Made by a program: the position numbers and the translations under genes
Notes under the pieces: generated by a model
The model's database searches: none
Told to the model about the DNA's origin: nothing
What the model saw: the letters and a program-made list of their open reading frames with translations, nothing else
Assembly (NCBI GenBank): GCA_963774795.1
Contig: CAVZGI010000009.1
Coordinates: 674,437 to 738,436, forward strand
Direction: 5' to 3'
Length of the DNA stretch: 64,000 nt
Source: an uncultured Methanobacteriaceae archaeon
Lineage (GTDB): Archaea; Methanobacteriota; Methanobacteria; Methanobacteriales; Methanobacteriaceae
In this document: one piece after another, positions 51,744 to 61,224 of the stretch
How positions within the stretch are numbered: the first letter of the stretch is position 1
How the letters are laid out: each line of letters opens with the position of its first letter

Positions 51744-52313
51744 GTGATCCTTCTATCTGCGCGGAATGTGAAACCATGGCCTGTACTGACAGTATGCCCG
51801 GTAGGAACATTAAGACCTTCAGAAATCCCAGGAATGGGACTAAAAGGCTATTGTGTTTCTTGTGGCCGATGTGTCAAGGTCTGTGATATAAATGAGGCTC
51901 GAAGCTTTAAAAAAGTTACCTGGGATGGAAGCATTTCTGATGACTGTATATCTTGCGGTATATGTGCAGAAATATGTCCTAAAGATGCCATAACTCTTAA
52001 AAGAGGAACTATTGATGTGGATCGGACCAAATGTATTTTATGTGAAAAATGTGGTATTCACTGCCCGGTTGATGCTATACCCAAAACTACCATGCGTAAA
52101 AAATCTATCAAAGACGGATTTACACTTATAAATGATAAATTGTGTATGCAATGCCATTTATGTGAAAAAATATGTCCTGAAGAGGCCATATCTGAAACAG
52201 AAGATGGAAGATTAGTCGTGGATGAAGATAAATGTATATATTGTGGGGCTTGTTTTAATGCCTGCCCTGCCAGAGCAGTAATGTTTGAAAGGGAGTTTGA
52301 GGAATCAGTATGA
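51744..52313 (+). CDS. Polyferredoxin, 5 complete clusters plus an orphan CP; same frame as the upstream ORF, separated by one TAA; N-terminus probably frame-shifted
   Basis: [60 protein letters not shown]; an orphan TVCPVGT sits at the start while another frame reads CAECETMAC. Confidence 0.7.
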
Positions 52314-52797
52314 AAAATTTAATTAGGATAATCCTGGAAGGGGCTTATACCAATTTTAAAAGGATAGTTTTTGCCTCAGACCGGGTTACTGACATGGAAA
52401 TGAGAAGCCGAATTCTGGAGGGACGTGTTCAACCCACAGATAAAGTTGCGGAAGTGGCATGTATTGGTTGTGGTGGATGTTGCTAATGCCTGTCCAACAG
52501 AAGCTGTGGAGATGAAGGATCTGGAAGAGCCAGTAGAACTAATGGAAGGTCTTGGTAAAGACTCAATTACCAGTTTTAAATAGTGAAAAATGTGTGCACT
52601 GTTATTACTGTCATGATTTCTGCCCATTATATGCGTTATTTGGTGAAAAAGGTACTATCCATCCGAATGATGTAGGAATTGTGGAATCAGATATTAATCA
52701 GTTAATGGATAAACCTTTCAAGATTTCAGATGATAAAATTGCTTTTATATCTCAATTTTTAGCAGATAAAAGTATTTTAAAGAAAAAAAAGATTTAA
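52310..52797 (+). pseudogene. Hydrogenase-associated 2x[4Fe-4S] ferredoxin split across three frames by two frameshifts (about 52480 and 52550)
   Basis: Frame 1 ends ...[13 protein letters not shown]; frame 2 reads [35 protein letters not shown]; frame 3 reads [23 protein letters not shown]... Confidence 0.55.
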
Positions 52798-52887
52798 TTT
52801 GATAATTTTATCTAATTAATTATTTAAATAAGAATTAGTCATTAATAATCAATTAAAACAAATAATAAAAATTATGAGAGTGATTAA

Positions 52888-53334
52888 ATGAGCCTCAAAT
52901 CATATTCAAGGGCGAGAGCTGTTCATGCCATGCTAGTATATACTGGAGGATGTAATGGTTGCGATATAGAAATCGTAAATGCTGTTTTTTCTCCTAAATT
53001 CGATGCAGAGCAATATAAAATCTTCTTAACCTGGAACCCCCGGGAGGCAGATGTTCTCATTGTCACCGGACCGGTTACTAAACACAATGAAAAACCTTTA
53101 AAAGAGATATATGATGCAATACCTGAACCTAAAGCAGTTATTGCTGCAGGGGCATGTGCTTTAATGGGTGGAGTTTATAAAAACATTCATGGTGATATAC
53201 CCTCTGAAGAAATAGCTGGACCGGTGGATAATGTTATACCTGTGGATGCAAAGGTTCCAGGATGCGCTGTAAGGCCAGAAGATCTTCTGGCAGGTGCAGT
53301 TGCTGCTTTACCTAAACTTTTAGATGCGGAATGA
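52888..53334 (+). CDS. Energy-converting [NiFe] hydrogenase small subunit (NuoB-like)
   Basis: [22 protein letters not shown] and PGCAVRPED cluster-ligand motifs. Confidence 0.9.
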
Positions 53335-53605
53335 AAATTTTTGGGTCCTTAACATCAAAATAACTCTAAACTCAAAATAACTTTAAATCAATAAAAAATT
53401 CTTAAAATTCAATAATAAGTCATAATAAAATTTAAACAAACATAAAATTATTATTCAATAAAATTATTCAATAATGAATTTGAATTAATTAAAAATTTAA
53501 TTAATCAATCATTACCAACTTTATCAAAATAATCATTTAAAAAGTGATATTTATAAAATATATAAAAAATTATCTAAATCACCAAAAAACTTTACAGGTG
53601 TTATA

Positions 53606-57592: not shown

Positions 57593-58419
57593 TCACGAAA
57601 AATCAAGATTTTGATGGCATATTTCCAGATAACTGCATTTTTCACACTTTTTAGGGTTTATATTTACTTCGGGTAATTCCCCTAGATTGATTATTTCTCT
57701 TATAGCATCTATTACAATAAATAATCCTTCTTTAAGTTCAGAATCAACGATTACTGGTCTTTTATCTCCAAAATTTTCATAATCTACAAAACCTACCAAG
57801 ACCTCTGTATCAAATTCTCTTTCTATTAGGAGTGCGTATGCTGCTATTTCAATGGCATCTGAATCCCAAATTCCTCTTAAGGGAGGATTTTTTAGATTTT
57901 CGGGATATGGGATAATATTTTCCATTGACAATCTCTATTTTATCCACTGTTCCGGACATTTCCAGGTTTTTGTCTCTGATTAAATAACTTTGCAATGACT
58001 GGCGGAAAAATCATTTCACTATTTGAACAGGATCTCTTTTTGTCTTTAACAACATTCTGTGTATTTTTAGAGCTAAAATTGTATTTTCTACTTTTAAATC
58101 ATTTTCTAACTCTTTATATAGTAAATTCTTTTCAGTTTCACTCTCAAATTCATAGTTTTCCAGAGATTTATTTAATATATAAGGAACGTCTTGAAAAGGT
58201 TTCACTAATTTCGGAAGCATTCATGTCATTTTTTACTTTATCAGAGGTTCTTTCTTCTCAAGTCTCTAAAATCCATTTTTAAATGGCCGAATAATTTTTG
58301 AATTGTTTCTTTCTTTCAATTCTTCATTTTCAATTGTTATCAAGCTCCAAATGATTTTTTAAATACAATTTCAAGGGACAATACAAATATTCAGTTATTG
58401 AAGATACCTTTATTGACAT
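57593..58419 (-). pseudogene. Cas4-like / DUF83 PD-(D/E)xK nuclease with a Cys cluster, split into at least 3 pieces by frameshifts; stand-alone (no CRISPR nearby)
   Basis: N-terminal MSIKVSSITEYLYCPLKLYL; middle EIAAYALLIE (QxxxY-like); C-terminal KKCEKCSYLEIC. Confidence 0.55.
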
Positions 58420-58571
58420 TTTAAAACCTCTCATACATTCATAAATTTATTCTAGTTTTTTTGGGATTTTTAATTACTTTTAAAGACTATTTTGGGACTA
58501 TTTCTTTATTTATTATATTTATATTTTTTTTTATTTTAGTATTACTAACTTTTTAAAAAAAAATTGAGATT

Positions 58572-59865
58572 TTATTCATCTAAAATTCTAATTAACATGC
58601 TTGGTGCATTTATTTCATTTAATTCGTCTATTTGGGATAAAGCATCCTTTATATCCTTTTCTGAAGCTTCATGAGTTACTATAAATATAGGAAGTGATGG
58701 TTCTTCTTCATTTTTTTCCTGGTTAACTGATTCTAGACTGATATTGTACTCACTTAAAATGCCAGAAATTTTGTGAAGTACACCTGGTTGATCAAGCGCT
58801 TTTAATCTAATGTAGTATCTGGAAATTACATTATCCATATTTTTAATAGGTGTTTCCTTGATTTGAGGGGGTCCATAAGTTATTTCTTTTTGGGAATTGC
58901 TTATTATATCAATACAATCTCCCACAACGGCACTGGCTGTGGGCATCATTCCTGCGCCCTGCCCATACATCATAACTGGACCAACAGCATCTCCAACCAT
59001 GTAGACTCCATTGAAAACATCATTAACTGAGGCCAGCAAATGAGTTTTAGGTATTAGGGTGGGATGGACTCTCACTTCCAGTTCATCTCCTACTTTTCGG
59101 CTGATTCCCAATAGTTTGGTTACATATCCCAGGGTTTTGGAAGTAAATTCAATGTCTTGTGGAGTTATTTTTGTTATTCCTTCCACATGGAATTTTTCCT
59201 GAGCAACATAATTTCCAAAACCGAGTATAGTTAAAATTATTAATTTTTGAGCAGTATCGTGCCCTTCGATATCAAAAGTAGGGTCTTGTTCAGCATAACC
59301 TTTTTCTTGAGCTTCTTTAAGGACATCATCAAATTTTAATCCCTCTTCACTCATTTTAGTTAGAATATAATTGGCAGTACCATTTATTATTCCATAAATG
59401 CCTTCAAAATTATTAGCTGCTAAAGATTCGTTTAATGGTTGTAAAAGAGGTATTCCTCCACCTACACTGGCCTCAAAAGAAATTCTAACATTATTTTTTT
59501 CGGCAGTTGCTGTGATTTCTTCCCAATGCTTTGCTAAAAGTGCTTTATTGGCGGTAACTACGTGTTTTCCATTTTCAAGGGCTTTAATTATAAAACTACG
59601 GGCTGGTTCATATCCACCAATTAATTCAATTACTATGGATATTTCAGGATCTTCTAATATATCGTTAACATCCGTTGATAGCTTTATCAGAGCTAATTTC
59701 AACTCCTCTATCTGTGTTTATATCTAAATCAACTACTTTTTTAAGATTAACTTCTTTTCCAACTTTTTTTTGTATTAAATCAATATTTTGGTTGAATATT
59801 TCTATTACACCGGATCCTATGGTTCCAAAACCAATAAATCCAATATTTATGGATGTTTTATTCAT
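58572..59865 (-). pseudogene. hom: Homoserine dehydrogenase with a C-terminal ACT domain; one frameshift near 59690 separates the NAD-binding N-terminus
   Basis: N-piece [20 protein letters not shown]; main piece [12 protein letters not shown] ... ACT domain [18 protein letters not shown]. Confidence 0.85.
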
Positions 59866-60115
59866 AAAAATCCTCCAGGATATTCCAGGATATCGAGATA
59901 ATTAATATTACAATTGTTATAAAATATTTATTTTAATGAATATATTATTTTATATTAATTAATTATATGAATTCTACACTAATACATTAAATTGTAATTA
60001 TTTAAATTTAAATTATTTTAGAAGGACATTCGTTAATATTATTAATTTTTGTATTAATTGTAATACTTATACTTTTTTATTACATTATTTTTTAACAATA
60101 ATTTTCATTTTTCGT

Positions 60116-61224
60116 TTATAAATCCAGAGGATTTATTTTAAGCTTAATAAATTCATTCAAAGACTCTCTGGTTGTTCCTACAACAATCCTGTAACTTTCT
60201 TTCTTTTTGATGACTTTTTCTAGCTTTCCTCGAGCTACTATTCTTTCACCTTCCAGGGCCTGACCAGAGTAGGTATGGGTAAATGAGGCGATTTCACTGA
60301 TATTAACTTCAGAAATTTCGTGGGACTGGGATGAAATCAAATTAATATCAATTATTTTGACATCCTGTACCTCATAAACTGCTGGATTGTCAAAAGAAGC
60401 TAGAGCATTGGAAACGGTACATTCCACGGTCATTTGGCCCAGTGGTTCGTAACTGGTTTCACCCCAGGTTCCTGATATTTCGTCCCATTCTCTGGTGGCC
60501 AGAATATCAAATAAGGTTCCATCAACAACTCCTCTGTTGTTTTTTCTCTTTTCATACCAGCAGAATTCTTCAAAACTTAAGGTGGAATCTTTTATTCTTT
60601 TATCATAGACTTTTCTCCAGTAATCATCACCAATACTTTTAAATGATTGGTATTCATCGGTATCCTTTATTTTACCGAAAAGATTCATGGCCCTGCGGTG
60701 ATGGGCCAGTACCATAAATCACAAAATCTATATCTGAATTTTCAGGATCGTATAGGTCAGGTAATATTGATCCAGATATTCCCATGCTTTCATAAGGTAT
60801 TCCTGCACCTTTATGGAATGTATCGGCAACTTTAATGACTTTTTTCAGGATAGAATCATTAGAACAGTCATTTCCTGGTTGATGGTCTGGATTATTATCA
60901 ATATCCATCATCTGGTTTCTTATTTCCTGTAAGCGCTCATCAGGCCTTAGAATTTCTTTAACTTTATTTAAAGGTACACCCATCATTTGAACCTGAGTAT
61001 TATCACATTCGTACAAATAATAAGGATAATTTTCTTTTAAAAAACTGTAGGCTTCTTCAGAATCAACTTTGGAGTATCTTTTCCCATTTTTGAACCTCTC
61101 ACCTTCTGGATCTGGAATATATCGTCAAAAAGGCCAGTATACGATCTTCGGGATGCAGATAGGAGGTTGTTGCAAAAAACAAGTCATCCGTGGTATATAT
61201 GAAATCGCGGGTTCTGGCTCTCAT
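60116..61224 (-). pseudogene. Large conserved archaeal protein, fragmented by at least 2 frameshifts; candidate tRNA(Ile2) agmatidine synthetase TiaS (low confidence) carrying a Pol-beta-like GS..DxD motif
   Basis: N-terminal [23 protein letters not shown] (compare TiaS GIDDTDS..GMCTTYL); [24 protein letters not shown]; three ORF pieces in different frames joined at A/T runs. Confidence 0.35.

Follow-up and report, generated by a model that had tools for sequence, protein, structure and literature searches.

A dense patch of frameshifts in a Methanobacteriaceae genome probably reflects a chimeric consensus of two related templates

Introduction

Long-read assemblers collapse related strains (PMC8302730), and polishers reportedly perform poorly where a region is heterozygous or mixed (PMC8092372). 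Many relatives of the archaeon studied here are metagenome-assembled genomes (MAGs) built from Nanopore reads only, with Flye and one round of Medaka (PMC12313526). Here we analysed a 64,000-nucleotide segment of a Methanobacteriaceae chromosome (contig CAVZGI010000009.1, positions 674,437 to 738,436; about 33% G+C), hereafter the window, in which nine genes in and next to the energy-converting hydrogenase B (ehb) operon are split by frame-breaking insertions and deletions (indels). An earlier interpretation made from the letters alone (the sequence-only reading) had pointed to this patch and judged sequencing errors at A/T runs to be its most likely cause. We put the probability at roughly 80% that two related templates were merged into a chimeric consensus over this 9.8-kb stretch, that is, that the patch is an artefact of assembly or polishing and not biology.

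Results

Distribution of the indels

A scan of species-representative genomes gave 80 syntenic loci from relatives, of which L001, L002 and L003 are the three closest, with a DNA identity to the window of about 85% for L002 and 81-83% for L001 and L003. Frame changes were mapped by searching the window with the relatives' proteins (tblastn), followed by nucleotide alignments with these three loci. This yielded 27 frame-breaking indels between 51305 and 61125 (9.8 kb), distributed over nine genes: 24 insertions of one nucleotide (+1), two deletions of one nucleotide (−1) and one deletion of two (−2). The first 26, all window-specific (23 insertions and three deletions), come from the nucleotide alignments and underlie most of the statistics below; event 27 is the one at 58332/58333. 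All the patch genes are intact in the three syntenic relatives (3/3).

The interval from about 50.9 to 56.1 kb is the 3′ portion of the ehb operon, where Pfam identifies EhbK-L-M-N-O-P. It is followed, 3′ of EhbP and in this order, by an ACT and DUF5612 protein, a 91-aa (amino acid) protein, a Cas4-like (DUF83) protein, hom, a TiaS-like protein and a PCC-domain protein. The patch and its genes are as follows.

51305 to 61125, no strand: the whole patch, from the first event to the last; L001-type and L002-type alleles are mixed here.
50888 to 52313, plus strand: EhbK polyferredoxin, 474 aa when repaired (about 474 aa in relatives); +1 at 51305, −1 after 51737, +1 at 51786; identified by Pfam Fer4 families, with tblastn matches passing from frame 2 to frame 3.
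52310 to 52797, plus strand: EhbL 2x[4Fe-4S] ferredoxin, 161 aa; +1 at 52483 (gttgCtaat, Cys/Ser alleles) and at 52560; Pfam, tblastn and alignment.
52888 to 53334, plus strand: EhbM small subunit, 148 aa; intact within the patch; Pfam Oxidored_q6, 97-98% identity over the full length.
53606 to 54748, plus strand: EhbN [NiFe] large subunit, 379 aa; +1 at 54148, 54198 and 54464; NiFeSe_Hases and Complex1_49kDa matches on three fragments.
54760 to 55762, plus strand: EhbO NuoH-like membrane subunit, 332 aa; +1 at 55054, 55267, 55339 and 55386; NADHdh matches on two fragments.
55837 to 56112, plus strand: EhbP, about 88-91 aa; intact within the patch; Pfam Ehbp, 1e-37.
56435 to 57094, plus strand: ACT and DUF5612 protein, 218 aa, a single gene; +1 at 56509, 56648 and 57081; Pfam DUF5612.
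57226 to 57503, minus strand: conserved 91-aa protein; +1 at 57413 and 57250; tblastn and alignment.
57593 to 58419, minus strand: Cas4-like (DUF83) nuclease, 274 aa when repaired; seven events, namely +1 at 57894, 57998, 58240/58241, 58288 and 58332/58333, −1 at 58019 and −2 at 58197; Pfam Cas_Cas4.
58572 to 59865, minus strand: hom, homoserine dehydrogenase, 430 aa (homologues have 426-445 aa in all 120 cases among the matches listed); a single +1 at 59686; Pfam Homoserine_dh, NAD_binding_3 and ACT.
60116 to 61224, minus strand: TiaS-like protein (a name taken over from the sequence-only reading), 368 aa; +1 at 60710 and 61125; its sole Pfam match is a sub-threshold one to NTP_transf_2.

The sequence-only reading had counted at least nine split genes within 52310-61224. 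The split genes are real, but eight of them lie within these coordinates and EhbK makes the ninth; its three events move the start of the patch about 1 kb upstream, from 52310 to 51305. Shift counts of two for EhbL, at least three for EhbN and for the Cas4-like gene and at least two for the TiaS-like gene, together with a split hom, agree with the 2, 3, 7, 2 and 1 events that we found. For the NuoH-like subunit two shifts had been given, but EhbO has four; and the ACT and 'IIIIGGG' proteins, taken as two, are one 218-aa gene, the 'IIIIGGG' protein being its C-terminal domain. The in-frame stop apparent in EhbK at 51738-51740 is there because of the −1/+1 indel pair, and a selenocysteine codon or a nonsense mutation at this position was ruled out, the stop being a product of that pair.

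Expressed per kb of assessed coding sequence, frame-breaking indels number 3.07 in the patch vs 0.16 in 30.8 kb elsewhere in the window, a 19-fold difference (conditional binomial p=2.6e-13), so that the dense patch described earlier is borne out. For the part outside the patch, extra reference loci were found via homologues of intact window proteins, and the rate given for it leaves out approximately 1-4.8, 8.4-9.5, 13.2-14.0 and 18.8-22.8 kb, which are without reference cover. No frame change was found in any assessed orthologue at 22.8-51.3 kb and 61.2-63.0 kb, and about 28 kb of clean genes thus adjoin the patch. The remaining events, five indels across three genes plus one nonsense substitution, are located at 4.8-18.8 kb. 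That EhbM and EhbP are untouched inside the patch is compatible with its event rate.

Composition of the indels

According to the sequence-only reading, every junction inspected coincided with an A or T run or bordered on one. Two of the 26 events fall inside a run of at least four (vs 11.9% of positions), seven fall within 3 nucleotides (nt) of such a run (vs 26.1% of positions) and none falls inside a run of at least five; A/T runs are therefore not enriched, and the proximity noticed earlier is at chance level. The inserted base is identical to a neighbouring base in just 3 of 23 insertions, each time turning one copy into two, while 42% would be expected for a random base (p=0.003). Examples in which the inserted base, shown in brackets, stands outside any change in run length are gttg[C]taat, ttaga[G]agtt, ctgg[T]aaaaaa and aaatc[A]ttcc. 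Insertions outnumber deletions 23:3 among the first 26 events (p=9e-5), and 24:3 when event 27 is counted.

In 18 of the 23 insertions the extra base matches the allele that a relative has in the neighbouring alignment column, and the base that the window itself has aligned there is the other allele, so that both alleles are written side by side. Taken across all positions and bases, an exact null predicts such a match in 13% of cases, compared with the observed 78% (p=2e-12), and simulated random insertions followed by realignment gave it in 27 of 236 (11%) vs 17 of 22 real events under the same protocol. All but one of the 18 pairs (17/18) consist of an L001-type and an L002-type allele in tandem, while L001 and L002 differ at about 19% of columns. 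Dropping either member of a pair yields a residue found in a relative (C/S, L/I, L/V, S/A, V/A, K/E, A/S, S/L, L/M), and seven pairs are synonymous. Both 1-nt deletions fall on columns with different alleles in L002 and L001, and there neither allele is written. Near codon 28 of the Cas4-like gene, a compensated +1/−1 pair sets L002 apart from L001 and L003, and the window has the +1 of L002 together with the second site of L001/L003; event 58332/58333 is a template switch, from L002-type to L001/L003-type, within this compensated indel pair.

Two candidate local triggers were tried and rejected. Switches between blocks of the allele mosaic are not associated with the indel sites (13 of 26 are flanked by different states vs 46% by chance), and 'isolated' differing sites had no effect (4/18 vs 22% background). 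Transversions are mildly favoured at the both-allele sites (12/18 vs 46%, p=0.10).

Affinity of the patch to its relatives

In the flanks the window is sister to L002, with distances (d) of 0.085-0.104 to L002 and 0.18-0.215 to L001, and at about 78-80% of discriminating sites it shares the state of L002. Between 51.3 and 61.1 kb it is equidistant (d = 0.131 to L002 and 0.137 to L001), and 48% of these sites are L001-type, with a weak allele block structure (runs test z = −5.5). Directly after the last indel it is L002-type again. As derived from these distances, the private branch of the window relative to that of L002 falls from about 0.9 in the flanks to 0.38 in the patch. A per-site blend of two lineages falls on the path between them, whereas a natural third lineage should retain a clock-like branch of its own.

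Just upstream, a block at 49900-50850 also leans to L001 (58-69% of discriminating sites) and is L002-like on both sides; it holds no indels and has a normal private branch, and the synonymous divergence (dS) of the gene at 49988-50455 from L002 is 1.37. Such a pattern points to natural recombination, or to divergence in L002, adjoining the artefactual patch.

Could ordinary sequencing or consensus error, in a long-read region of locally low coverage and with no second template, have produced the patch by homopolymer or random indels? The patch is sharply bounded and about the size of one long read, the 0.16 frame-breaking indels per kb elsewhere in the window are typical of a long-read-only assembly, and the genes, once repaired, are intact and show purifying selection (see below), all of which would fit. 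However, the indels do not alter run lengths and are no closer to runs than chance allows, the inserted bases avoid duplicating their neighbours (3/23 vs 42%), the insertion excess is marked (23:3, p=9e-5), and random insertions would give the both-allele pattern in 11-13% of cases rather than 78%. The change in affinity over the same interval would also be left without explanation. We therefore consider this explanation unlikely, and the A/T-run error that had been named as the most likely cause in the sequence-only reading is not supported. Indels that are not enriched at runs, a 24:3 excess of insertions and 18 of 23 inserted bases with the relatives' alternative allele point instead to a chimeric consensus of two templates.

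Repair and selection

Once the 27 indels were removed, with the inserted bases taken out and the deletions filled, all nine genes reached the length of their orthologues and had no internal stop (for the 91-aa gene the translated repaired range ended short of the stop codon). Neither nonsense substitutions nor larger deletions were found in the nine patch genes. The ratio of nonsynonymous to synonymous substitution rates (dN/dS), calculated against L002, is 0.075 in the frameshifted genes after repair and 0.068 in their intact neighbours, a test that alone is blind to very recent inactivation. A genome of the same species was sought with two of the repaired genes and was not found: the best match was 92% in a homology search with hom and 81% in a metagenome scan with the TiaS-like gene (locus L087, outside the patch).

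These results bear on the view that the genes are true pseudogenes, either of a decaying lineage, for example a host-restricted one, or of a cell line that has gone through damaging recombination with a related species. The indels are present in the sequence as given, and reduced, pseudogene-rich Methanobacteriales do exist. A locus of Ca. Methanobinarius endosymbioticus (L079) is among the relatives, and one gene outside the patch carries a nonsense substitution (7693-7695). Yet selection is not relaxed in the repaired genes, which are free of nonsense substitutions and larger deletions and are all mended by removing the 27 indels, and the events are limited to 9.8 kb beside about 28 kb of clean genes. 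Prokaryotic decay is usually deletion-biased, opposite to the insertion bias of the patch, and the non-repeat context together with this bias is likewise opposite to the usual spectrum of spontaneous indels; there is no known mutational mechanism for 1-base insertions outside repeats that match a relative's allele. Pseudogenes are thus quite improbable. Full-length repair, the similar dN/dS values and the sharp boundaries of the patch agree with the sequence-only reading in its central point, that the frameshifts are an artefact rather than decay and that the label pseudogene would mislead.

We regard as very improbable a second biological scenario, in which the indels are physically in the DNA: two Methanobacteriaceae species would have undergone a recent homologous recombination over about 10 kb, leaving a hybrid tract of fine mosaic structure, mis-resolved mismatches in it would have left tandem insertions with both alleles, and Ehb, hom and their neighbours would be truly inactivated in the population sampled. 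Programmed recoding, i.e., +1 ribosomal frameshifting or transcript editing that would restore the frames in vivo, is hardly conceivable: nearly all events would need one identical correction, the skipping of one base, but the 23 sites share no motif (at most 0.14 bits per position) and no shift is seen in the L001, L002 and L003 orthologues, which together exclude programmed frameshifting, and in addition the distance from insertion to next stop varies, 1-nt and 2-nt deletions are also present, and nine unrelated genes are affected, all within one 9.8-kb interval.

Other observations in the window

Frame defects at 4.8-18.8 kb involve three genes. The GNAT acetyltransferase gene (5665-6269, plus strand) has two +1 events relative to L086, at about 5891 and about 5955, and the Flavodoxin_2/FMN reductase gene (17725-18340, plus strand) has one, at about 18089 (cccAGAAgg vs ccccG-Agg), both genes being compared with a single reference. 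The third encodes a conserved 157-aa hypothetical protein (7300-7773, plus strand) with a +1/−1 pair about 18 nt apart (about 7737 and 7755) and a TAG at 7693-7695, where the L086 orthologue has TGG (Trp); the change may be either a genuine nonsense mutation or an erroneous substitution. This gene also contains an A7 run, which carries no indel. The sequence-only reading had seen the signature of the patch recurring in this part of the window. Isolated +1 events do occur in the GNAT and FMN reductase genes, but they lie outside the runs that had been named (for GNAT, the A5/T5 runs at 5915-5940), the gene with gaaaaaaatta has no indel at that motif, and the name 'DUF1730 paralog' was not confirmed, as Pfam yields no family for the fragment.

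A stretch poor in open reading frames (ORFs) at 23.3-24.5 kb was considered as a second fragmented patch and ruled out. Five transfer RNA (tRNA) genes clustered at 23668-24285 (plus strand) account for it, and one more is found at 26774-26845 (plus strand).

Two further ORF differences concern other loci. At 46432-46966 (plus strand) L003 has one ORF of 178 aa where the window and L002 each show two neighbouring ORFs, of 85 and 91 aa, that are in different frames. Either two small Ehb membrane subunits are naturally split or fused here, or two long-contig MAGs have a frameshift in common. At 35573-36700 (plus strand) the window has one intact 390-aa ORF for a PAS/HATPase sensor kinase, which in three Illumina-derived relatives (L081-L083, 6278-7400) is present as two overlapping ORFs (229 and 161-171 aa).

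Discussion

If the patch is a chimeric consensus, it would have arisen by mixing of reads or templates at a step of the pipeline, presumably in a long-read source assembly. In keeping with such a source, intact proteins of the window are found with 100% identity on an NCBI/ENA contig of 806,958 bp, and contigs of this length are typical of long-read MAGs. The organism itself would be L002-like, as its flanks are, and a second, L001-like Methanobacteriaceae population would have been present in the same sample. In the assembly or polishing of the metagenome-derived genome, reads or a draft segment of this population may have been merged with the organism's own over about 10 kb, through a draft contig threaded along a foreign read or through foreign reads recruited in polishing. 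At most differing sites the consensus would then pick one allele, giving a fine mosaic, and at some of them the base difference would be rendered as an insertion plus a deletion, which would leave both alleles in tandem (+1) or neither (−1). One frameshift would come from the template switch within the compensated indel pair of the Cas4-like gene. In the real organism the genes would be intact. The two templates appear to differ at the species level (L001-type vs L002-type, divergence about 0.2).

Several points weigh against this explanation. The both-allele sites favour codon positions 1 and 2 (12/18 vs 30% expected, p=0.0015), which would not be expected if differing sites had been hit at random, and the mixed-template model in its present form explains neither this bias nor the mild excess of transversions. 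If the second template diverged from the organism as L001 does from L002 (about 0.2), an indel would have arisen at just about 1.5% of differing sites. The block at 49.9-50.85 kb leans to L001 without indels, so that a shift in affinity is no proof by itself, and a literature search gave context but no description of the exact tandem both-allele signature. The codon bias and the yield of about 1.5% bear on how the artefact arises, not on whether the patch is one.

A chimeric origin has practical consequences. The nine patch genes should not be annotated as pseudogenes, and no loss of Ehb or of homoserine dehydrogenase should be inferred for the lineage. Phylogenetic, average nucleotide identity and recombination analyses should handle the 9.8-kb interval as chimeric. 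The locus also provides a diagnostic that needs reference genomes and no reads: +1 insertions outside homopolymers whose base is the alternative allele that relatives show in the neighbouring column, found together with a change in phylogenetic affinity, separate mixed-template consensus error both from homopolymer error and from decay.

Among known systems, the patch resembles the collapsed-strain or heterozygous consensus of long-read assemblies (Flye/Canu; PMC8302730, PMC8092372), in which two related templates are merged, alleles form a local mosaic and small errors break ORFs; like such regions it is sharply bounded and about one read in length. It differs from strain-level collapse in that its templates appear to be of different species (about 0.2), and tandem both-allele insertions were not found described in the literature searched. 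The homopolymer indel errors of Nanopore, 454 and Ion Torrent data similarly fragment MAG genes by 1-nt indels, with intact orthologues and frames restored by 1-nt edits, but the indels of the patch spare run lengths, are not enriched in runs, show a 24:3 excess of insertions and have bases that match alleles of related genomes. Host-restricted or endosymbiotic methanogens that accumulate pseudogenes also have several core genes frameshifted; unlike such decay, the events here are local and not genome-wide, with no relaxed selection, deletion bias or nonsense substitutions. As to its biology, the locus is ordinary, an ehb operon with housekeeping neighbours and no biological novelty. Its content and order, EhbK-L-M-N-O-P with the Pfam families Ehbp, NiFeSe_Hases/Complex1_49kDa, Oxidored_q6, NADHdh and Fer4, are like those of the ehb operon of Methanobacteriales and Methanococcales. 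It is syntenic with its relatives and, once the indels are removed, shows no biological difference from an ordinary operon of this kind.

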